Counted from the stretch's first letter, positions 1 to 64,000 are shown. The stretch is 64,000 bases of DNA from Nitrospirota bacterium (GCA_963796285.1 CAWCKW010000012.1:320001-384000), one strand, 5' to 3'. The notes: generated by a model from the sequence alone, not told the origin. Numbers and translations are program-made.

Positions 1-1375
1 CAATCCTTGCTTTATCGTGACGGGATCACGATCGATGGTCTGTCCACTCTTGCTGAGGAGCTGGAGGCCCTCTGGGCAAAGGAGATCCTTGACCAGTATA
101 TGCAATGTTCCGGTGATCCCCTGGATGCGCTCCGTATTGCGCTTGCTGGCTCCGCACCGTTCGACGCTTTCTACCGGGATGCCGGTTGCCGTTCTGATCG
201 ATGATTTTCATTGGATGAAGGGTCTTCATCTTGAAGGTGTCCCTGATCACCGGCTGGCGTCACTTTTTCAAGAGCCGATGTCTCACAGAAAAACGCCCCA
301 TGTGATCACGGGGAACATGGCCGAGCTCCAGGAGATGGCCGTGGTGAGCGGTCTTGAGCGGATACCGGTCCCTCCGCTTGGATCCGAGGCGGCCTCGTCG
401 ATGGTCCTTGCTCTCCTGAATGCACAAGAGGCGGAGGGCAACGTGCCTCCACTTCTATTGCGTCATCTTGGCGGAAACCCGTATTACCTCGGTCGCATCG
501 TCACCAGGGCGTGCGCAAAGAACAATCCAGATGATAAGGATTTTTGGAATGCCTATATTCAGGAGATCATGGAAGGAGCACTTGCCCTCTCGTGGTTGAC
601 GGTCCTGAAGAGCTATTTCCCTGACCTGGGGCAGAGGAGAACTGCCCTCGACAATAATCTCTAAAATCTATCATACTACCGAGGCCCTGTCCTGCCAGCG
701 GATCGCGAAGGTTTTTGCGTTGACTGACGGCGAGGCGCATGGTATTCTTAATGCGCTGTATCTTGCTGGTTTTATTCGCGGAGAGTTTGGCAGCTTCAGG
801 CCAATGGACGACCGGGTGTTGCGGGACATCGTTGATGCTCTCTCCATGAGGGAGATCCTGTCGAAGTCCCCTCATGACCTGGAAATGCACTTTCTTGAAG
901 CGCTGTTACCGCAAAAGGGACAGGTTGTCCGCTTTGACATGACACTCCCGATGGCCAGAGAGGCGGAGCTCATTGTTGCCCAGAGTCTTGAGCAGATCGG
1001 CAAAAATCTTAATCTCAACCAGGATGCCATCGGTCAACTGCAAATAGCTGTTATCGAGGCTTGTATCAACGCCATTGAACACGGCAGGGGGATGGATGAT
1101 AAGATCTATGTCAGCGTTGCGGTTGATGGGGACCAGACTGGAGGTTTCGGTCGAAAGTGCCGGACAGGAGTTCATCATCCAGGAAACGGGAGAACCTTAC
1201 CGGGACCAGGAAGCTGAGAAAAAAGCAGGAAGAGGATGGGGGATAAAATTAATGAAACGCTTTGTGGATCACGTCAGGTTTGAAAAAACACACATACGGC
1301 ACAAAAATAGTGCTCGTCAAAAAGATCGAAAAGTCTGCAGGCATTCACAAGGAGGATACGGCAAACCATGAGTAA
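1..1375 (+). CDS. Partial multidomain protein ending in an anti-sigma-factor Ser/Thr kinase (RsbW/SpoIIAB-type HATPase_c) domain; N-terminal part resembles an AAA/P-loop ATPase-associated region; split by several frameshifts
   Basis: ORFs 17-664, 720-1217 and 1075-1371 join into one product. Motifs 'LIDDFH' (Walker B-like) and 'LGGNPYYL'; C-terminal 'IAVIEACINAIEHG' (N-box) and 'GRGWGIKLMKRFVDHVRF' (G2 box). The start lies upstream of the window. Confidence 0.75.
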
Positions 1376-1723: not shown

Positions 1724-3090
1724 ATGTCGAACAGTAAGTTTCAGCTCAAGCGCTTGATGTTCAGCATTGCTTCGCTGGTCGATCTGGGACAGGAGGCAAC
1801 GTCCTCCAAGGACCTGTCGGCAAAAATGAAATCCGCACTCTATGTCATTACCGGTACGTTTTCCGTGCCGAGGGCAGCCCTATTTGTTTACCATCCCAGG
1901 CAGAGAAGTCTGGAACTTCTTGCTGGTAAGGGATATAAAGAGAGTGCCTGCCTGCAGATTAAATTATCTGTTCTGCCGCAGCATATTAAGCATTTTCATG
2001 TGAACGAGCCGCATTCCATTCATGAGATGGCCGGGGGCTCTTTTTACGAACGGAATGATCAGGTGTTTTCGAAGTTGCAGACAAGGCTCTTCATCCCGCT
2101 CTTTGCCAAAGATGAGTTTGTCGGTGCTATTGCGCTCGGCAAGAAACTCGGCCGGGAATCCTTCCGTCAGAACGAAAAAGATGTTCTCCGGGTCGTAGCG
2201 CACCAAATGGCGATAACGCTGTATAATGTGACACTTTTCGGGGAACTTACCAAGAAGGCCGCGGAAAACAAGAAACTCTATGAAAGCATGCGCCGCATTT
2301 ACCATGACACCATCCAGGCATTTTCCGCAGCCATCGACGCCAAGGATGGGTATACCAAAAGACCATTCCTATCGTGTGGCATGTTATGCCGTCGCTATTG
2401 CACGGGAGCTCGGATGGAAGAAGAAGGATGTTGAGGGCCTTTATGTCGCCGGTCTGCTCCACGATATCGGGAAGATCATCATTGACACCAAGGTCATTAA
2501 AAAGGGAGAAGGGCTTACGACCCTTGAAAAAAAGGAAATAAATAAACATCCGCAGATATCATACGATATCCTTTCAAAGATCAAGTTCCCCTGGAAGAAT
2601 ATTGAACGGTTTGTGCTGCATCATCATGAGCGGCTTGATGGAAAAGGATATCCAGATGCGCTCCGGTCAACGGAACTGAGCGACGGTGAAAAGATCCTTG
2701 CACTCGTCGATGCCTTTGATGCGATGACCACGGACCGGCCGTATCGGGACAAATTGGGGCTCGATGAAGCATTCCAGTGAAGTAATAAAATGTGGCGGAA
2801 CTCAATTTGATGAGCAGATAACGAGTACTTTTTTCAATTTACTGCTTCGAGAATTGAGCGGTGAGGTTAAAGATCTGCAGATACTCCCGCACTTGCGCAG
2901 CAACGAAACAGATCCGTCGCCACGGAACTGGGGTTGGGTCCAAGCGTCTGGCTCTACCGGCGGTTCTTGCAGGGATAAACGCGAAAGTCCAGATCCGCTA
3001 TTCTCCCGGCGCGAATCGGAGGGAGAAGATAGTGGAAAGCAGCCTCGAGGATCATGGACCAAGCCCCTGTATGTGACTAGACACAAATAG
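1724..3090 (+). CDS. GAF + HD-GYP phosphodiesterase (frameshifts near 2360 and 2775; true stop uncertain, 2900-3090)
   Basis: GAF segment 'LFIPLFAKDEFVGAIALG...VLRVVAHQMAITL'; 'AAIDAKDGYT..HSYRVA', 'LLHDIGK', 'HHHERLDGKGYP', 'DAFDAMTTDRPYR', 'GTQFD'. Confidence 0.88.
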
Positions 3091-3144
3091 TAAGCATGCC
3101 CGGTGGTACGCAGTAAATGTTCACACCGTGACAAAGGGTAAACG

Positions 3145-3180
3145 ACGCAAAAAGCGGTGATTGCTCACCGCTTTTTGCGT
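3145..3180. terminator. Intrinsic, probably bidirectional, terminator
   Basis: Perfect 16-bp stem acgcaaaaagcggtga-ttgc-tcaccgctttttgcgt with A/T tracts on both arms. Confidence 0.85.
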
Positions 3181-3507
3181 TACATGGGAATGTTTTAAGA
3201 GGCAGATTTTCTGCGGTTTATCCCGGATCTTCTATCTTTTCCACTTCTCCGTTCCACGCTCTTGTAGTGTGGATCATCTAACTTTCTTCTATTTTCAATG
3301 GATCGTCTAATCATATAATTTTAACCAGTTTCATCATATATTTTGTTGATTTGTTTCGCAGTTTTTCTGAAAGAGATAATCTGGTTTTATTATGTCAGTT
3401 TTTTATAAGCAAAAGTGCCCGTTGCGCGAATGCCAAATCAGTCCAGTATGTTGCTCTGAATGCAGTCTAAAATATTTTTATTTTCATACAGTTGAGTGAC
3501 ACTTCAC

Positions 3508-4941: not shown

Positions 4942-5151
4942 TTGGTACGGAATAAAATTCTTCTCGAAATGAAGAAAAATAGAGCCACAAAGGTCATCGA
5001 GCGCATACCCTGCTCTTGCGAAGCGCGGGCACAAGCAGAGAAAGACTCGCAGTAATCTCATACCGATAAGATTTTGCTTTCTATTTTTACCTCTGTGTTC
5101 GCTGTAGCAAAAGCTTGTTGGTTCCGGCTTGACCGGGTTAGGAGAACGGAC

Positions 5152-6371
5152 GTGGAACAAACTCAGGAACTGGACATTAAACGCTATCTTCACCTCATGG
5201 TGAAACGGCGTTACCTTTTTGCGATCACGGCCGCCTTCATCATTACTGCAGTGGTCATCATAAGTCATTTCATACCACCGGTTTATGAGGCCGAGACCCT
5301 CGTTTCCATCGATAAAAGCTTTTTAAACAAGTGTCCTTAAAAATATTAGCGGGCACGGAAGCGATCGATGATAAATCCGCGGCACTTTCAACGATCATGA
5401 CGAGCAGGACCATGGTTTTAAAACTGCTCAGCGATCTTGGCGTAGATATGAAGCGGATGACCGAAGCACAGGTCGAGGGCTTCATCAAGAACACGCAGAA
5501 CATGACGCAGATCAATGATTCAGCAGATCGAGCGGATCTGTAGACTTTTTCACGGTTTCTTTTCGGAACCAGGATCCTCGATTTGCGAGGGATTACGTGA
5601 ATAAAGTGGTCAGTAAGTATATTGAGACAAGCATCGGCTCCAAGAGAGAGGACTCATCCGGCGCCAACACGTTTCTCCTGGACCAGATCAACCAGCAAAA
5701 GGAGAAAGTAGGCAAACTCGATCGCGGAGATCGCAGTGCTGAAAAAAGACGAAGATATTATTCTGTATAGCAAATTACTTGAATTGCAAAAGCGGCGCGA
5801 TGATCTTCTCGTCCAGTACACGGAACATCATCCCGAGGTGCTCAAAGCGCAATCCGCGATCGAGGCGCTCAAGGCGAAATACACTATTTCACCGCAAAAA
5901 CTGGCGTACGCTGTAAATGGCGTTAACCGGCTGGCCAGCCTTGAGCACGAGCTCGAATTCAGCAAAAAGATATACGACGAATTGACAGTGGCCTATGGTA
6001 AATCCGAGTTGTCTACCCAGGCAGAGTTGCAGGACAAAGCGGGAACATTCAAGATCGTGGACCCCGCTGTCCTTCCCATCACGCCGGTCAGCCCGAACCG
6101 CATCAAGATCATCTTGCTGGGGATCGTTGCAGGGATGGCGGGCGCAGCCGGTCTTATCGTGCTCCTCGATGTCTTTGATGATTCCATTAAGAGCGTTGAT
6201 GCGATCAAGAGTTTAGGCATCCCCGTGCTTGCTATCATCCCGCATATTCAGGACCCCCATGCATTGATCAGGTCGAGGAGAAAAGATATCTGCTTCTACA
6301 CGTTATCCGGATTGTATGTCGTGCTCCTGGTCGCCGTCATAGTCCTGGAACAACTTAGATTGCTCGGTTAA
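5152..6371 (+). CDS. Polysaccharide chain-length determinant (GumC/Wzz/Wzc N-terminal half), frameshifted
   Basis: GTG at 5152; 'LDIKRYLHLMVKRRY..TM..PPVYEAETLV'; 'YTEHHPEV'; 'FKIVDPAVLPITPVSPNR..TM..DDSIKS'. Confidence 0.88.
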
Positions 6372-52431: not shown

Positions 52432-52448
52432 TGCAGTAAGGAGAATCG

Positions 52449-55400
52449 ATGGAGATGACGGACAGAAGGGACAGGTACGGGTCCTCGATAAAATATTTCG
52501 TGTTCCTCGCGGTGGCGTTAACGATACCGTATCTGTTGCCGACGAACTGCTGGCCGGTTTCGGAACCGATACAGAAGCACTCGCCTGTTAAGAGTCGTCG
52601 TGTGGACGGCGAGATCCTGGTGCGATTCAAAACCGGAGTCGGTCAGGCAGCGGCCGGGGCCATATTATCACGATACGGTTTTACGAGCATCAAAAGATAT
52701 AAGCGAGTTTCAAACCTGTATCACGTTCGTATACCCTCGGTCCTTACGGCCGATGCCGCCATCGATCTATTGCAGTCCGATCCAGATGTTGAGTACGCCG
52801 AGCCTAATTACCTCATGGAGGGCGATTCTGCCTGCAGCAGCTCGCCATGCACGCCGAATGATACATTATATTCTGACCCCGGCAATTGGGGATTTGCCAA
52901 TATCGGTGCGCCGCAGGCCTGGACGGTTACAACAGGTGATAGCAGTTTGGTCGTGGCAGTGATAGATAGCGGGATTGATTATAACCATCCTGATCTGGCC
53001 AATAATAAATGGACCAACCAGGCTGAAGCATCAGGAACTCCTGCCTTTTATGGATATAATGCTGTTGCGGATATCGGTTCTGGAGGTCTTTGCCCACCAC
53101 CGGCCAGCAGTTTTCCTATCGATGATGATACTTCGGTACTGGGCCATGGAACTCGTCTTGCCGGGATTATAGGTGCGGTTGGAAATAACAGCACCGGTAT
53201 TGCTGGGGTGAATTGGAATGTCAAACTGATGCCGATTAAGGTTCGTTGCGAACCCGATCGGCAATCAAATCTCGCTCTTTTTATTGCCGGAATGGACTAT
53301 ATGCTGACCGAGAAGCAAGCTGGTGTCAATATCCGTGTGGCCAATATGAGTGTCGGCGTCTCAACCTATAGCCAATCTCTTCAGAATATACTCGACGCGG
53401 CTCGTGATGCTGGCATTCTCTTAGTAGCCTCTGCCGGTAATTCGAGCACTAACCTTGATTTAGATTCGACCGATTTCCATTCGTATCCGTATGACAACGT
53501 GCTCTTTGTTGCGGCGACCGACCAGACCAATGCGCTTGCCGGATTTTCGGACTACGGTCAGGTCGATATCCACCTCGCCGCTCCTGGCGCCGGGATCCTC
53601 AGCACGGTGCGCAGCGTCTATACGCCGCTGTACCAGACAGATGACGGGACCTCGTACTCCACGCCGTTTGTTACCGGTGTTGCGGCGCTTCTGTCGGCCT
53701 ATGATCCGACCATTTCATACACCGGATTGAAGGCGCATATTATCAGCGCAACGACGCGGGAGGATGCGCTGGTGGGAAAGGTCGCCTCCGGTGGGCGGCT
53801 CAATGTCGCTGATGTCTTCAGCGCGCCGATCACTGATCTGAGGCCGGCAGGCTATCAGTTGGCACGCATCGAGGTAAACCATAAATATTATACAGATAGT
53901 TCGTTTACCATTACCAGCATTCCTCAAGGGTTCGACAGGCTCTGGTGGGTGAGGACGAAGAATGCCGACAATGCCAACACGGATGCGAACCATATCAATA
54001 TCGGTCTGGGCCGGGACGCCACCGTCTATGTGGCATACGACCCAAGAGCAATTTCGATCCCTGACTGGCTCAGCTCCGGCCACGGCTGGACGGATACGGG
54101 TCTCAGTATCGGCGTCTCGGATTCCGGAGCGGGCTCACTTCGGATTTATGGCAAGCCGTTTAGTAGCGGTATGGTGGTTTTGGGAGGCAATCAGGCGGCC
54201 GGTTATGTGGGACCGACCTCTGGTTCTAGTTCAAACTATGTCGTCCTCATCAGTCTCACCGGCGATACGCCGCCTTCAACCCCGGGAAACTTGCAGGCTA
54301 CAGCGGTATCTTTATCCGCAATCAATCTTTCCTGGACGGCCTCGACCGATTATACGGGTGTTGCGGGGTATACTGTTTATCGGGGAGCGGTCCCGGTTGC
54401 AACCACGCCGACCACTGGATATACGGATACTGGTCTTACTGCTTCAACGATATATACGTATAAAGTAAGCGCCTTTGATTCGGCAGGCGACGTTTCTCCT
54501 CTTTCAGACCCGGCCTCTGCTATGACCTTCTCAGATACCACACCGCCTTCCGTGCCGACCAACGTTCAGGCTGCGGTCATATCGTTCTCACAAATCGATC
54601 TTTCCTGGACGGCCTCGACAGATAATGTGGGTGTTGCGGGGTATACTGTTTACCGGGGAGGGGTCCAGGTTGCAACCACGCCGACCACTGGATATACGGA
54701 TAGCCGTCTTACTGCTTCAACGATGTATACGTATAAAGTAAGAGCCTTTGATTCGGCAGGCAACGTTTCTCCTCTGTCAGACCCGGTGTCTGCCGTGACC
54801 CTGACCCTCCCCTTAGATACCACACCGCCTTCCGTGCCGACCAACGTTCAGGCTGCGGTCATATCGTTCTCACAAATCGATCTTTCCTGGACGGCCTCGA
54901 CAGATAATGTGGGTGTTGCGGGGTATACTGTTTACCGGGGAGGGGTCCAGGTTGCAACCACGCCGACCACTGGATATACGGATAGCGGTCTTACTGCTTC
55001 AACGATGTATACGTATGAGGTGAGCGCCTATGATACGACAGGCAATGTATCTCCATTATCAGCCCCGGTCTCTGCGACGACTGGTACGGGCCTTCAATCG
55101 ACTGCGAATAACCCACCCTTTGCTCCAACCCTGGTATACCCAACAGACGGTCAGACAGGGTTAGGGACAACGGTGACATTCCAATGGAAGACATCCGCAG
55201 ACCCCGACGGAGATACGGTGACGTACCATCTGTATTACTGTCCAGATAAGAATTTCATCGGATGCAATCCCGTAGATGTGGCGTTGCTTGAGCCCAAGAA
55301 TAGTTACTACGCAGGCATGGGGGGCTCTGCTGTGCTTTTGGTATTCGGCAGCATCTGCGCAAGAGGCCTAAAACGCAGAAAGGCGCTGGCGTTGTTCCTT

Positions 55401-55592
55401 ATCGGCGTGATCATTGTCATCGGCGGAGTGCTGTCATCTTGTGGAGGCGGCGGTGGAACACAATCCACTGACGAGAAGAGCTATACAACGACAGGACTTA
55501 CTGCAGGGACGACCTACTTCTGGAAGGTCGTTGCCGATGACGGCAAAGGAGGCACCACGGCAAGCGCAGTATGGAGCTTCAGCACACAGTAG
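52449..55592 (+). CDS. S8 subtilase with propeptide, an uncharacterised beta-domain, 3 Fn3 repeats and a C-terminal domain interrupted by a TM/lipobox segment
   Basis: Catalytic 'VAVIDSG', 'GHGTRLAGII', 'ASAGN', 'GTSYSTP'; Fn3 'DTTPPSVPTN..LSWTASTDNVGVAGY'. Confidence 0.93.
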   Translation: MEMTDRRDRYGSSIKYFVFLAVALTIPYLLPTNCWPVSEPIQKHSPVKSRRVDGEILVRFKTGVGQAAAGAILSRYGFTSIKRYKRVSNLYHVRIPSVLTADAAIDLLQSDPDVEYAEPNYLMEGDSACSSSPCTPNDTLYSDPGNWGFANIGAPQAWTVTTGDSSLVVAVIDSGIDYNHPDLANNKWTNQAEASGTPAFYGYNAVADIGSGGLCPPPASSFPIDDDTSVLGHGTRLAGIIGAVGNNSTGIAGVNWNVKLMPIKVRCEPDRQSNLALFIAGMDYMLTEKQAGVNIRVANMSVGVSTYSQSLQNILDAARDAGILLVASAGNSSTNLDLDSTDFHSYPYDNVLFVAATDQTNALAGFSDYGQVDIHLAAPGAGILSTVRSVYTPLYQTDDGTSYSTPFVTGVAALLSAYDPTISYTGLKAHIISATTREDALVGKVASGGRLNVADVFSAPITDLRPAGYQLARIEVNHKYYTDSSFTITSIPQGFDRLWWVRTKNADNANTDANHINIGLGRDATVYVAYDPRAISIPDWLSSGHGWTDTGLSIGVSDSGAGSLRIYGKPFSSGMVVLGGNQAAGYVGPTSGSSSNYVVLISLTGDTPPSTPGNLQATAVSLSAINLSWTASTDYTGVAGYTVYRGAVPVATTPTTGYTDTGLTASTIYTYKVSAFDSAGDVSPLSDPASAMTFSDTTPPSVPTNVQAAVISFSQIDLSWTASTDNVGVAGYTVYRGGVQVATTPTTGYTDSRLTASTMYTYKVRAFDSAGNVSPLSDPVSAVTLTLPLDTTPPSVPTNVQAAVISFSQIDLSWTASTDNVGVAGYTVYRGGVQVATTPTTGYTDSGLTASTMYTYEVSAYDTTGNVSPLSAPVSATTGTGLQSTANNPPFAPTLVYPTDGQTGLGTTVTFQWKTSADPDGDTVTYHLYYCPDKNFIGCNPVDVALLEPKNSYYAGMGGSAVLLVFGSICARGLKRRKALALFLIGVIIVIGGVLSSCGGGGGTQSTDEKSYTTTGLTAGTTYFWKVVADDGKGGTTASAVWSFSTQ
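54264..55080 (+). repeat. Three tandem Fn3-coding repeats (~270-282 bp)
   Basis: Units begin at 54264, 54534 and 54816; units 2 and 3 are nearly identical. Confidence 0.92.
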
Positions 55593-55649: not shown

Positions 55650-55772
55650 GGAGAATCAACAGCGATGACGGACAGGAGGGACAGTTGAGGGACAGTTATG
55701 GATCCCCGATGAGATATTTCGTGTTCCTCTTCCATGTTCGTCTGCGTCCCTGCCTTACCCCGTCGAATTGCG
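55650..55772 (+). pseudogene. Degenerate copy of the subtilase 5' end
   Basis: gagaatc...gatgacggacag.agggacag...atatttcgtgttcctc aligns with 52440-52550. Confidence 0.75.
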
Positions 55773-59191: not shown

Positions 59192-62100
59192 ATGATAAAA
59201 ACTAAGATAGAACATAAATACAGGTTGATTTTCCTAGTTGCAATCGCAGTCATTTTTACGGAACTTTGTATCGTGTCGTTACAGGACGGTGCGGTTTGGG
59301 CCGCCTCGACCTCTAAACCCGCAAAACCCATTAAAGGTCCTCACGTCCTTAATGAGTTGCTCGTAAAGTTTAATATAGGCGTGGATTCTAATCAGGCAAA
59401 GGCCGATTTGTTAAAATACGGTTTTACGAGCATCAAAAGATATAAGCAAGTTTCAAACCTGTATCACGTTCGTATACCCTCGGTCCTTACGGCCGATGCC
59501 GCCATCGATCTCTTGCAGTCCGATCCAGATGTTGAGTACGCCGAGCCTAATTACCTCATGGAGGGCGATTCTGCCTGCAGCAGCTCGCCATGCACGCCGA
59601 ATGATACATTATATTCTGACCCCGGCAATTGGGGATTTGCCAATATCGGTGCGCCGCAGGCCTGGGCGGTTACAACAGGTGATAGCAGTTTGGTCGTGGC
59701 AGTGATAGATAGCGGGATTGATTATAACCATCCTGATCTGGCCAATAATAAATGGACCAACCAGGCTGAAGCATCAGGAACTCCTGCCTTTTATGGATAT
59801 AATGCTGTTGCGGATATCGGTTCTGGAGGTCTTTGCCCACCACCGGCCAGCAGTTTTCCTATCGATGATGATACTTCGGTACTGGGCCATGGAACTCGTC
59901 TTGCCGGGATTATAGGTGCGGTTGGAAATAACAGCACCGGTATTGCTGGGGTGAATTGGAATGTCAAACTGATGCCGATTAAGGTTCGTTGCGAACCCGA
60001 TCGGCAATCAAATCTCGCTCTTTTTATTGCCGGAATGGACTATATGCTGACCGAGAAGCAAGCTGGTGTCAATATCCGTGTGGCCAATATGAGTGTCGGC
60101 GTCTCAACCTATAGCCAATCTCTTCAGAATATACTCGACGCGGCTCGTGATGCTGGCATTCTCTTAGTAGCCTCTGCCGGTAATTCGAGCACTAACCTTG
60201 ATTTAGATTCGACCGACTTCCATTCGAATGAGTATGACAACGTGCTCTTTGTCGCCGCGACCGACCAGACCAATGCGCTTGCCGGATTTTCGAACTACGG
60301 TCAGGTCGATATTCACCTCGCCGCTCCGGGTGTCGGGATCCTCAGCACCGTCCGAAGCGTGTACAATCCCATGTATCAACCCGATGATGGAACATCCTAC
60401 TCGACCCCCATGGTTACGGGTGTCGCGGCGCTCCTGGCTTCGTCCGATCCATCCCTCACGGTTTCAGAGCTCAAGGCGCGCATCATGAGCTCCACAGTTC
60501 AGACCAACGCGCTTATGAGCAAGGTGGCCGCGGGCGGGCGTCTGAATGCCGCAGGTATTTTCAACGCGCCGATTGCCGATCTATTGCCAATGGGCTATCA
60601 ATTGGCGCGCCTCCAGGTCGGCGATAAATATCATCTGGACAGACCCTTTGTCGTTGCGTCCATCCCGCAGGGCCTGAATGGTCTCTGGTGGGTGCGCACA
60701 AAGAACAACGACAAGACTAATACATCGCCGAACTATATCCAGATTGGACTCAATCAAGCGGCGACAGTATACGTTGCGTACGATTCGCGCGTAACGGCCG
60801 ACGAGCTTCCGGACTGGTTGCGGTCGGACCAGGGTTGGTTGGACACGGGGCTGTTTATTGGAACTTCCAATAACGGTACGCCCAGTTCGTTGCACCTGTA
60901 CTCAAAGACCTTCATTCCGGGAACGGCCGTACTTGGAGGGCCTCAGGCCGTTGGTTATAACGGGCCGGTGGGCAGTTCGGGTACTAATTATGTCGTGTTG
61001 ATCAATCTTTTATCAATTACGGCTCCAACCAATTTGAATGCAACAGATCTTCCATCTGACAATGGTGGAGCCATTCAGCTGACCTGGACACCTTCGGCGA
61101 CCCCGGGGATCGTGGCGCAGCGGGTGTACCGTGCGACGACAAGCGGCGGGCCGTATACCTTGATATCGAGCTTTGCCGACAATACGACGAACGCTTACAT
61201 TGATAGTGGACTGACCAACGGGACGACCTATTATTATGTGGTTCGTTCTTCTGACGGCACACAGGAGTCGGCGAACAGCAACGAGTCATCGGCCGCACCG
61301 GTAGACAATCTTGCACCGGCGGCGCCGACCGCGCTGGCTGCGGTGGACAATCCGGGAGACAATGGCGGGGCGATCCGCTTGACCTGGAACCCCTCGGTCA
61401 GCAGTGATGTCATGTCACAAGGGATTTACCGTAGCACCACCCCGGGCGGGCCGTACACGATCATAACCAGTATTGCCAATAATACGACCAAAACCTACAC
61501 GGATAGCGGCCTGACGAACGGGATGACCTATTATTATATCGCGCGGTCTTATGACGGCACTCAGTCGTCCGCAAACAGCAATGAGGCCAGCGCCGCACCG
61601 GTGGACAATCTGGCCCCGGCGCCGCCGACATCTCTATCGGCGGTGGATAATCCGGCGGATAACGGCGGGGCGATCCGTCTGACCTGGACGCCCTCGGTAA
61701 GCCCGGATGTGACTGCGCAGCGGGTGTATCGTGCGACGACCGCGGGCGGGCCGTACACGATCATAACCAGTTTTGCCAATAATACGACCAACACCTACAC
61801 GGATAGCGGACTGACGAACGGGAAGACCTATTATTATATCGTACAGTCTTTTGACGGCACTCAATCATCCGCAAACAGCAACGAGTCGTCGGCTGTTCCC
61901 GTTGTAAATATCGCTCTGGCGGCGCCGACCGCATTAGTTGCGGCGGACAATCCGGGGGACAATGGCGGGGCGATTCGTCTAAGCTGGGGGCCATCGGGGA
62001 GTCGGACCGCAGTGGCGCAGCGGTTCTACCGTGCGACGACCAGTGGCGGGCCGTATTTCTTGGTGATGAGCTTTGCAGACAATACGACGAACAGCTATAC

Positions 62101-64000
62101 GGACATTGGGTTGACAAACGGGACAAGGTATTACTATGTGGTGCGGGCCTTTGACGGTTCGCAGGAGTCGGCGAACAGCAACGAGTCATCGGCCGCACCG
62201 GTAGACAATCTTGCACCGGCGGCGCCGACCGCGCTGGTTGCGGTGGACAATCCGGGAGACAATGGCGGGGCGACCCTCTTGACCTGGAACCCCTCGGTCA
62301 GTAGTGATGTCGTGTCACAAGGGATTTACCGTAGCACCGCCCCGGGCGGGCCATACACGATCATAACCAGTCTTGCCAATAATACGACCAAAACCTACAC
62401 GGATAGCGGCCTGACGAACGGAATGACCTATTATTATATCGCGCGGTCTTATGACGGCACTCAATCATCCGCAAACAGCAACGAGTCGTCGGCTGTTCCC
62501 GTGATAAATATCGCTCTTGTGGCGCCGGTGGGCTATCAATTGGCGCGCCTCCAGGTCGGCGATACAATATCATCTGGACAGAACCTTTATCGTTGCGTCC
62601 ATCCCGCAGGGCCTGAATGGTCTCTGGTGGGTGCGCACAAAGAACGACGACAAGACAAATACATCGCCGAACTATATCCAGATTGGACTCAATCAAGCGG
62701 CGACAGTATACGTTGCGTACGATTCGCGCGTAACGGCCGGCGAGCTTCCGGACTGGTTGCGGCCGGACCAGGGTTGGTTGGACACGGGGCTGTTTATTGG
62801 AACTTCCAATAACGGTACGCCCAGTTCGTTGCACCTGTACTCAAAGACCTTCATTCCGGGAACGGCCGTACTTGGAGGGCCTCAGGCCGTTGGTTATAAC
62901 GGGCCGGTGGGCAGTTCGGGTACTAATTATGTCGTGTTGATCAATCTTTTATCAATTACGGCTCCAACCAATTTGAATGCAACAGATCTTCCATCTGACA
63001 ATGGTGGAGCCATTCAGCTGACCTGGACACCTTCGGCGACCCCGGGGATCGTGGCGCAGCGGGTGTACCGTGCGACGACAAGCGGCGGGCCGTATACCTT
63101 GATATCGAGCTTTGCCAACAATACGACGAACACGTACATTGATAGTGGACCGACCAACGGGAAAACCTATTATTATATCTCCGCGTTGGTTGCGGCGGAC
63201 AATCCGGGGGACAATGGCGCGGCGATTTGTCTAAGCTGAGGGCTGTCGGGGAGTCCGACCGCAGTGGCGCAGCGGGTCTACCATGCGACGACCAGTGGCG
63301 GGCCATATTTCTTGGTGATGAGCTTTGCAGACAATACGACGAACAGCTATACGGACATTGGGTTGACAAACGGGACAAGGTATTACTATGTGGTGTGGGC
63401 CTTTGACGGTTCGCAGGAGTCGGCGAACAGCAACAAGGCCTCGGCCGTGCCGATCGATAATATTCCGCCCGTGATCTCGAATCTTGCGGTCACGAATATC
63501 CTGATGAAGAGCTTGACCATTACCGGATCACGGATAAACCGGCCGATTCCCAGGTCGAATACGGAACGAGCCCGGCTTACGGTCACGCAAGTGCGTTAAA
63601 CGGGACGCTTCTGACCAATCACTCCGTGGTCCTGGCCGGTCTGTCGGCTGGAACGGGCTATTTCTATCGTATAAACAGCCACGAAGCTGCCGGAAACCTT
63701 GCGATTGCCACGGGCAGTTTCACAACCCCGCGCCGTCGAATCTGAAATCGCTTCAGTCGGTAACCGTCACGCTTCCCGCAGGGGCCGCATCAATTTCGGT
63801 GACAATCAATGGCGTGGATCCGACGAAGGCCTTCTTGGAATTCGGGACGAGCTTCAACGATGCCAATCCCCAGTACTCGCATATCTCGGATCGGATCAGC
63901 CCCAATGGGACGAGTTTGGTATTTCAGTGTTATGGCGGGGCGGGGCCTCAGGCCGTGACGATCAAGTGGTATGTGGCGGAGTTTATTAGCGGAGTGACGG
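59192..64000 (+). CDS. Second S8 subtilase with Fn3 repeats; intact to ~62565, then frameshifts and a stop; continues beyond the window
   Basis: Same catalytic motifs as 52449; five 'DNPGDNGGAIRLTW..GGPY..Y.D.GLTNG.TYYY' repeats; duplicated module at 62530; purple-acid-phosphatase-type Fn3 'DSQVEYG...HSVVL.GL..GT.YFY' near 63550-63700. Confidence 0.88.
59417..60330 (+). repeat. Near-identical copy of 52674-53590 (subtilase propeptide and catalytic core)
   Basis: Offset 6743 bp; only a few substitutions are visible over the first ~800 bp. Confidence 0.95.
62530..63177 (+). repeat. Near-identical copy of 60592-61237 (uncharacterised domain plus first Fn3)
   Basis: gggctatcaattggcgcgcctccaggtcggcgata begins both copies; identity continues ~650 bp. 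Confidence 0.93.

Follow-up and report, generated by a model that had tools for sequence, protein, structure and literature searches.

A split FnIII tail carrying an internal lipoprotein-type signal in a Nitrospirota subtilase: a putative variant of the lipo-invert C-terminal anchor

Introduction

How could a large exported protease make use of a lipoprotein-type signal that lies close to its C-terminus? This question is raised by one gene of a Nitrospirota bacterium (GCA_963796285.1, CAWCKW010000012.1:320001-384000). The whole stretch of DNA that was analysed, 64,000 nucleotides (nt) long, is here referred to as "the window", and positions are counted from its first letter unless a contig is named. 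A single long open reading frame (ORF; 52449..55592, plus strand) encodes an exported S8 subtilase of 1047 amino acids (aa), whose last beta-sandwich domain is interrupted by a hydrophobic helix, a basic turn and a second hydrophobic helix that ends in a lipobox Cys (Cys998). An initial annotation had read the insertion as a signal processed by Lgt and LspA, the segment after Cys998 as the missing part of the split domain, and the whole as a candidate new anchoring system.

The tail feature is real, conserved and well defined and, judging from the comparisons described below, it probably anchors the protein through a lipid close to the C-terminus. Its FnIII-hosted form appears to be new, while the putative kind of anchor to which it would belong is already catalogued and, as far as literature searches show, unpublished.

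Results

Architecture of the split tail

Re-translation of the ORF confirmed all tail elements and coordinates of the initial annotation. The tail used in the analyses (P0002) consists of the last 165 residues (nt 55095-55589), and "tail numbering" counts from its start. All of its elements lie on the plus strand. The N-half of the FnIII domain (residues 887-952, 55107..55304) reads NNPPFAPTLVYP...VTFQW..SADPDGDTVTYHLYYC... and carries a DPDGD motif together with Cys931 and Cys939; AlphaFold2 (AF2) assigns it strands A, A', B, C and C', with a predicted local distance difference test (pLDDT) score above 90. It is followed, in the C'-E loop, by a cassette of about 63 aa, whose parts were delimited on the translation. 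The cassette consists of helix 1 (residues 953-971, 55305..55361, YYAGMGGSAVLLVFGSICA), for which alignments of 31 and 28 rows were also used, the basic turn RGLKRRK (residues 972-978, 55362..55382), which doubles as the n-region of helix 2, then helix 2 or h-region (residues 979-997, ALALFLIGVIIVIGGVLSS) with Cys998 and the lipobox L-S-S-C (55383..55442, the Cys codon being TGT at 55440-55442), and a Gly5 linker (residues 999-1003, 55443..55457). The C-terminal tail (residues 1004-1047 plus stop, 55458..55592) supplies strands E, F and G in the AF2 model at pLDDT 96-98. These 44 residues past Gly5 end in ...TTYFWKVVADDGKGG...VWSFSTQ, the ORF closes with TQSTDEKSYTTTGLTAGTTYFWKVVADDGKGGTTASAVWSFSTQ and the stop at 55590-55592, and the protein thus ends right after strand G.

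The conserved positions are spread over the whole tail. The region of helix 1 holds a Y-A-G motif and the near-invariant Gly967; in tail numbering, Ala73 of the YAG motif reaches at least 90% and Gly85 is invariant in the 31-row alignment, and Gly85 reaches at least 90% in the 28-row one. Behind the Cys, the motifs Y.WKV..D and S..W.F are invariant, with Y141, W143, K144, V145, D149 and S157 in the 28-row alignment (tail numbering). The basic turn has a net charge of +2 to +7 (median +4) across the modules measured. By the positive-inside rule it would lie in the cytoplasm, so that helix 2 would be oriented like a normal signal peptide and both FnIII halves would be outside; helix 1 is predicted to run from outside to inside, i.e. 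as a stop-transfer helix. Cys931 and Cys939 (55239-55265, YYC.D..F.GC; Cys49 and Cys57 in tail numbering) are either both present or both absent, eight of the 28 rows being without the pair. They likely form a disulfide, which fits a location outside the cytoplasm.

The flanking halves as one FnIII domain

The Pfam fn3 profile PF00041 matches the tail alone with 33.6 bits (gathering cut-off 25) in two stretches, the better one at 125-159. A single-sequence AF2 model was discarded for its mean pLDDT of 58.8. With the 31-row alignment the mean rose to 79.9, and values above 90 were reached at tail residues 11-66 and 125-165. In tail numbering, this model has N-half strands at 12-15, 20-23, 27-32, 43-49 and 60-62, helices at 78-87 and 97-112, and post-Cys strands at 127-132, 140-148, 154-156 and 160-164. 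VIA-align superposed model residues 4..165 on the 94-aa FnIII domain 9kvu (2..94) with a Z of 10.4 and a root-mean-square deviation of 2.1 A over 92 aligned residues; Foldseek gave a TMt of 0.75 over 165 alignment columns, with insulin-receptor chains among the matches. Since the model superposes on whole single FnIII domains, the post-Cys tail would supply strands E, F and G. The two flanking halves are therefore modelled as one seven-strand FnIII sandwich, as the initial annotation had argued.

The model puts the insertion between strands C' and E. In uninterrupted repeats the gap from N-half to C-half is -3 to 18 aa (first 40 pairs, from four proteins), compared with 56-82 aa here, which gives a net insertion of about 62-65 aa.

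We also predicted the two halves as separate chains (tail residues 1-69 and 116-165). The complex scored 0.51 against 0.00 for the best control and was graded "weak support"; the runs agreed in at least 96% of contacts, and the partner had a pLDDT of at least 71. The mark that was passed is reached by 58 of 80 solved complexes and by 2 of 110 mismatched pairs, and at scores of 0.60 or less lie only seven of the 80 solved complexes and both passing mismatches. These benchmark counts hold roughly, because the run used an author-built alignment, and the predictor may pass two halves because it has learned the fold to which they belong. Strand complementation by the post-Cys tail, which had been proposed from the sequence, thus received "weak support" from the two-chain fold.

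A lipoprotein-type signal far from the N-terminus

The segment KRRK, the 19 aa of helix 2 and L-S-S-C match the n-region, h-region and lipobox criteria of lipoproteins. The Cys of a lipoprotein is looked for within about the first 35 residues, and here it is residue 998 of 1047. For comparison we assembled 79 modules, namely 52 database representatives and 27 from named loci, two sets that may overlap. The PS51257-like core pattern is matched by 72 of the 79, which fits the earlier description of the site as a signal peptidase II lipobox. Among 78 modules, the last basic residue lies 14-21 aa upstream of the Cys (median 17), position -1 is occupied by S (56), A (17), G (4) or N (1), and position +2 is mostly G (59) or S (12). 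The post-Cys tail is 45-72 aa long across the modules. Similar signals are found at N-termini in the same genome, where 12 of 232 pattern-positive ORFs have a Gly-rich stretch after the Cys, e.g. ...LILVSCGGGG. Helix 2 together with the basic patch therefore reads, in sequence terms, as a lipoprotein signal peptide. A helix with such a lipobox, oriented like a signal peptide, is expected to be recognised by Lgt and LspA.

The processing enzymes that had been invoked are encoded in the genome, all above the curated cut-offs: one LspA (119.5 bits), two Lgt (257 and 159.9 bits) and one Lnt (366.6 bits). The Lgt paralogues are located at C12:1496185-1497653 and C3:341892-342665; the 159.9-bit one adjoins lspA and the 257-bit one lies elsewhere. 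A dedicated Lgt paralogue was considered and rejected: among 151 sampled genomes of the phylum, only three of the 11 module-positive genomes have two copies, while many module-negative relatives have two or three. Two to three Lgt copies are common in this bacterial family with or without the module.

A dedicated protease or partner was likewise sought next to the module. All-against-all BLASTP of 539 ORFs from about 6 kb around 21 loci and the window gave no conserved neighbour. Only three clusters were present in at least four loci, namely the module genes themselves, their antisense ORFs, and ABC-transporter ATPases (four loci), and no protease or partner cluster was linked to the module. 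The genome has one rhomboid protease, about 62 kb off, and rhomboids occur in 14 of 14 control genomes.

Conservation and distribution of the module

A phmmer search with P0002 against 1.84 billion representatives of 50%-identity clusters returned 5589 matches at E<=1e-3 and 264 at E<=1e-30. Among the best 150 representatives (query protein counted), 52 have the arrangement helix-basic-helix-Cys. The distance from this Cys to the C-terminus is 45-72 aa in every one of them, and no second such element was found elsewhere in them. The remaining 98 are without the hairpin, and four of these that were checked consist of many uninterrupted repeats of the same FnIII-like type. Conservation of the Cys in homologues, on which the proposal depended, holds throughout these sets: Cys116 (tail numbering) is invariant in the 31-sequence alignment, and the Cys is present in 52 of 52 representatives and in 28 of 28 module sequences from named genomes (one row being off by a column).

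We then translated 41 loci, of which 36 have hairpin and Cys, two have the hairpin without Cys, one is frameshifted and two are without the insert. The two Cys-less variants, L032 (Methyloglobulus metagenome-assembled genome (MAG), 2950-3444) and L033 (Bryobacteraceae MAG, 5062-5541), retain both helices, the basic turn and the FnIII tail, and read ...AYLFGQSG... and ...AFYVGRTDK... at the place of the lipobox. In the frameshifted locus (L048:6001-6497, a Nitrospirota MAG) the frame is lost past the FnIII N-half, and this is probably a pseudogene or else an assembly error. A distant subgroup from Desulfuromonadales/Thermodesulfobacteriota MAGs (L044, L047, L074, L077 and L082) has about 60-75 aa after the Cys and extra strand-like segments ahead of the YYWKV strand; their cassette may occupy a loop nearer the start of the domain.

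The module occurs in MAGs labelled Nitrospirota/Thermodesulfovibrionia, Geobacteraceae/Desulfuromonas, Gamma-, Beta- and Alphaproteobacteria, SAR324, Spirochaetaceae and others. A survey of phyla and co-occurring peptidases had been suggested, and it gave the several phyla but no conserved peptidase beside the module in the 21 loci and the window. In our sample two of the five genomes of the own genus are positive, and the genome studied here has one copy of the anchor module, the present one.

The passengers are diverse and include S8 proteases, beta-propellers and glycosidase-like proteins. The 51 homologues contain choice-of-anchor domains of types D (18), V (3) and Q (1), and relatives of MYXO-CTERM- and PEP-CTERM-anchored families are among the passengers. 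These domains end elsewhere in other sorting signals, and the tail therefore occupies the position of a sorting signal. By a crude hydropathy test, 29 of the 39 members starting with M have a signal-like N-terminus. The sequences thus show the module kept at the C-terminus of many unrelated, apparently exported passengers. In public records the FnIII-hosted type is named "hypothetical protein", "CSLREA domain-containing", "choice-of-anchor D", "S8 family serine peptidase" and the like; source names are given for 28 of the 71 other proteins listed, and none of the 28 mentions an anchor.

Relation to the lipo-invert family NF058595

The claim of an unrecognised new anchoring system did not survive comparison with NCBIfam (release 20.0, June 2026), where model NF058595.1, "invert_tail", describes the lipo-invert putative C-terminal anchoring domain (cut-off 37 bits) and already names this architecture. 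In both, the last beta-sandwich is broken by a helix, an Arg/Lys cluster and a second helix with a lipobox Cys in an [AS]-C-G-G-like context, and a short beta tail ends the protein. The model matches our tail below its cut-off, with 30.6 bits (E 3.3e-7, profile 25-96 of 113), or 30.8 bits in the genome scan. Of the 51 homologues, 28 match at E<=1e-4, and only one (39.2 bits) exceeds the cut-off. Such a sub-threshold match alone proves little, because plain lipoprotein signals yield them as well; such matches occur in 10 of the 14 control genomes and at further sites of the present one. Other sub-threshold matches that were inspected in the genome (L002 and L003) turned out to be ordinary N-terminal lipoprotein signals. 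No match above the cut-off was found in five genomes with the FnIII type or the Cys-less variants.

Matches above the cut-off are present in four of 61 Acidobacteriota genomes, with up to 98 bits and up to eight per genome. These acidobacterial members have an Ig-like domain, a helix, RRRR, a helix, [AS]CGG, then ...GTPxGxYTVTVTATSG..H...LTV and the stop. In hhalign, columns 79-121 of the FnIII-type profile align with 119-164 of the acidobacterial profile (43 columns, probability 96.7%, E 4.2e-10), a figure that may be inflated by hydrophobic composition. Only the hairpin cassettes align and the host beta-sandwiches do not, a failed alignment that does not prove separate origin. Here a DPDGD/YYWKV FnIII-like repeat is the host and three strands follow the Cys, whereas the acidobacterial host is Ig-like, with a tail of about two strands as far as its sequence suggests. 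Given that only the cassette aligns and that one of the 51 passes the cut-off, we class the tail as a putative FnIII-hosted sister variant of lipo-invert, in which a tail of the same kind is carried by another host domain and falls outside the curated family. Searches of titles and abstract openings found no publication on "lipo-invert" or on an internal or C-terminal lipobox hairpin.

The subtilase gene and its neighbourhood

From its N-terminus onward, the gene (52449..55592, plus strand) encodes a signal-like h-region, in which a 12-aa hydrophobic window scores 2.26 in hydropathy, a fervidolysin-type prodomain (PF22148, 1.7e-10), Peptidase_S8 at residues 166-436 (PF00082, 4.4e-45), three fn3 domains (PF00041, 5.1e-29) and the split terminal FnIII module. 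The fn3 domains, found by Pfam, are three tandem repeats of 264 nt each (54257..55075, plus strand) with 83-94% DNA identity. They are recent DNA duplications and form a spacer with the enzyme on one side and the anchor module on the other.

The ribosome-binding and start region of the gene recurs in a short copy that starts 58 nt past the stop and is 63 nt (79% identity, blastn) to about 80 nt (81-86%) long. The two copies lie at 52440-52508 and 55650-55729 and share the pattern GGAGAATC..ATGACGGACAGRAGGGACAG..TATTTCGTGTTCCTC. The second could be left over from a tandem copy of the gene, or it could be a regulatory element that both places share; its origin as a remnant of a second gene was set aside, since only 63 nt at 79% identity align.

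A paralogous S8 subtilase of 1206 aa is located at 59192-62812 (plus strand) and shares 88.4% nucleotide identity over 1335 nt, in the catalytic core. It differs in its signal peptide and in its five fn3-like repeats, and the anchor tail is absent. The final ~100 aa first repeat "GYQLARLQVGD", found at residue ~470, and diverge afterwards, which looks like the reading of a duplicated segment in a different frame.

Neighbours of the subtilase gene in this polysaccharide locus encode GT2 and GT4 transferases, methyltransferases, a radical-SAM/SPASM enzyme, a flippase and a PMT_2 protein. The gene for PrsK, the histidine kinase of the XrtA/PEP-CTERM system (512.6 bits), is intact and located about 16 kb downstream (C12:391650-393716). 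Beside it, at C12:389626-389916, lies the only exosortase match (PF09721) in the genome, which covers profile positions 77-173 of 254 and contains an in-frame TAA. The PEP-CTERM sorting system of this locus may thus be decayed.

Discussion

Comparison with known anchoring and sorting systems

The tail resembles classical lipoproteins in its basic n-region, 19-aa h-region, L-S-S-C, Gly-rich linker and signal-peptide orientation, and in having the enzymes in the genome, but differs in that the signal stands at residue 998 of 1047 and not at the N-terminus. Because the large passenger lies N-terminal of the cleavage site, cleavage would part it from the lipid.

PEP-CTERM/exosortase, GlyGly-CTERM/rhombosortase and LPXTG/sortase systems use tripartite signals with a helix and a basic cluster at the end. 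Helix 1 and the basic cluster are alike in these systems and in the present tail, which also takes the same place on "choice-of-anchor" proteins. Unlike in the tripartite signals, the chain runs 76 aa beyond helix 1 here and there is no signature motif; the NCBIfam families for PEP-CTERM, MYXO-CTERM, GlyGly-CTERM and LPXTG gave no match to the tail at E<=1.

A split FnIII whose pieces stay together has a precedent in the second FnIII domain of the insulin-receptor family, where an insert domain in a loop is cut by furin and the pieces are held together, also by a disulfide. Both have a long loop insert in an FnIII domain, but the receptor is eukaryotic, its insert has neither membrane hairpin nor lipid, and the sequences are unrelated.

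The nearest published system, by analogy, is MYXO-CTERM/myxosortase. MYXO-CTERM tags the C-terminus of surface proteins that are exported by Sec; it contains an invariant Cys, and an Lgt-like enzyme is proposed to lipidate this residue (PMC11980579). The single helix that follows the Cys is then cut within the membrane, and the system has a dedicated CPBP protease; the paper speaks of an "inverted topology" and no defined lipobox, and the lipid stays covalently on the passenger (PMC11980579). The two systems share a C-terminal tag and an invariant Cys, and relatives of MYXO-CTERM passenger families carry the present tail. They differ in that a second helix here restores the normal lipobox topology and that no dedicated protease was found around the 21 loci and in the window.

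The proposed mechanism

On balance we lean, though not strongly, towards a C-terminal anchor of the lipo-invert type. The N-terminal signal peptide would direct Sec export of the protease, helix 1 would halt transfer with the basic turn remaining in the cytoplasm, and helix 2 would re-export the tail, oriented as in a normal prolipoprotein. Lgt would then attach diacylglycerol to Cys998, LspA would cut Ser997|Cys998, and Lnt would acylate the new N-terminus. The resulting 50-aa lipopeptide would stay bound because the tail supplies three of the seven FnIII strands, and hairpin and lipid anchor, the latter non-covalently, would together keep the enzyme at the membrane. Moreover, the Cys is followed by a short beta tail in both beta-sandwich hosts, whose profiles do not align; this speaks for selection of the split itself and fits complementation after cleavage.

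Several points weigh against this lipid-anchor reading. The literature gave no lipidation, cleavage or localisation data for any member. The lipobox fit was judged by a PS51257-like core pattern, the hairpin geometry is not given by the AF2 model (pLDDT inside the insert is 50-64), and the complex of the two chains was predicted at the low grade given above. The conserved tail residues show that the tail folds and not that the chain is cut, because the same residues determine the fold of uninterrupted repeats. The spread of the module is patchy and low in copy number, with 11 of the 151 genomes of the phylum positive and one to four matches in each. In L032 and L033 the Cys and lipobox are absent from otherwise intact modules. 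Finally, the passenger would keep two helices after the LspA cut, and the lipid tether then looks redundant unless the hairpin is removed; no enzyme that would remove it was found among the neighbours in the 21 loci and the window or by the rhomboid and Lgt checks.

This last difficulty would be lifted by a second cut. A further membrane protease, already raised in the initial annotation, would act in or before helix 1, near Y-A-G, after LspA; the hairpin would be discarded, the lipopeptide would be the only tether, and the complex could move on to the outer membrane or the cell surface. We regard this as rather unlikely. The conserved Ala73 and Gly85, in or before helix 1, might mark the cut, and the passengers carry typical surface-protein domains (choice-of-anchor D, V and Q). 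The short beta tail kept by both hosts suggests a selected split, a rhomboid is available in the genome, and MYXO-CTERM sorting also combines a lipidated Cys with an intramembrane cut before surface export (PMC11980579). Yet the conserved Gly could merely serve helix packing, neighbours in the 21 loci and the window linked no enzyme to the module, and the rhomboid gene is distant and of a kind present in all control genomes. A still broader form, in which the cassette is portable and was inserted separately into at least two non-aligning beta-sandwich families, with LspA and a second cut leaving enzymes held at the surface solely by complementation with a ~50-aa lipopeptide, is doubtful; if true, it would be a two-chain lipid anchor without known bacterial counterpart.

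Alternatively, the two helices by themselves might hold the protease on the inner membrane, with the Cys unlipidated, the chain uncut and the FnIII domain tolerating the insertion. A two-helix hairpin is a sufficient anchor by itself, and the two Cys-less variants, intact with hairpin and tail, argue that a hairpin without lipid is viable and can anchor alone; the missing dedicated enzyme or conserved neighbour (21 loci and the window) and a second Lgt copy that does not track the module point the same way. We nevertheless hold it to be improbable. The Cys is retained in all 52 module-bearing representatives and in 36 of the 38 unbroken modules from named genomes, and it comes with a canonical lipobox in 72 of 79 modules, mostly S, A or G at -1, a basic patch 14-21 aa upstream and a Gly/Ser linker. 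The genome's own lipoprotein candidates look alike, and the known Lgt and LspA pathway would be expected to recognise such a helix and lipobox.

An artefact might be suspected, produced either by mis-assembly or by a chance fusion between a protein with a C-terminal anchor and the beginning of a lipoprotein gene further downstream. Helix 1 and the basic patch resemble a C-terminal anchor, helix 2 and the Cys resemble an N-terminal lipoprotein signal, and the start-region copy lies just past the stop. This reading has a practically negligible chance of being right, being refuted by the same in-frame layout at the end of 52 of 150 best representatives, by its occurrence in MAGs from Nitrospirota to Spirochaetaceae, and by flanks that are two halves of one domain.

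Significance

The idea of such an anchor is already in a curated database. What the window adds is an intact and clean copy, whose genome encodes the complete set of Lgt, LspA and Lnt, and evidence of the design recurring in a second host domain. If the lipid-anchor reading is true, annotation would gain as well: FnIII-hosted members are now listed under names such as "hypothetical" or "S8 peptidase", and the curated hidden Markov model passes only one of 51. The tail would also be a compact, portable display tag. For the bacteria that carry it, large exported enzymes would be lipid-anchored near the C-terminus by the universal lipoprotein machinery alone, through a domain that is cut in two and kept together by its own fold, and a sorting route would be added beside sortase, exosortase, rhombosortase and myxosortase.

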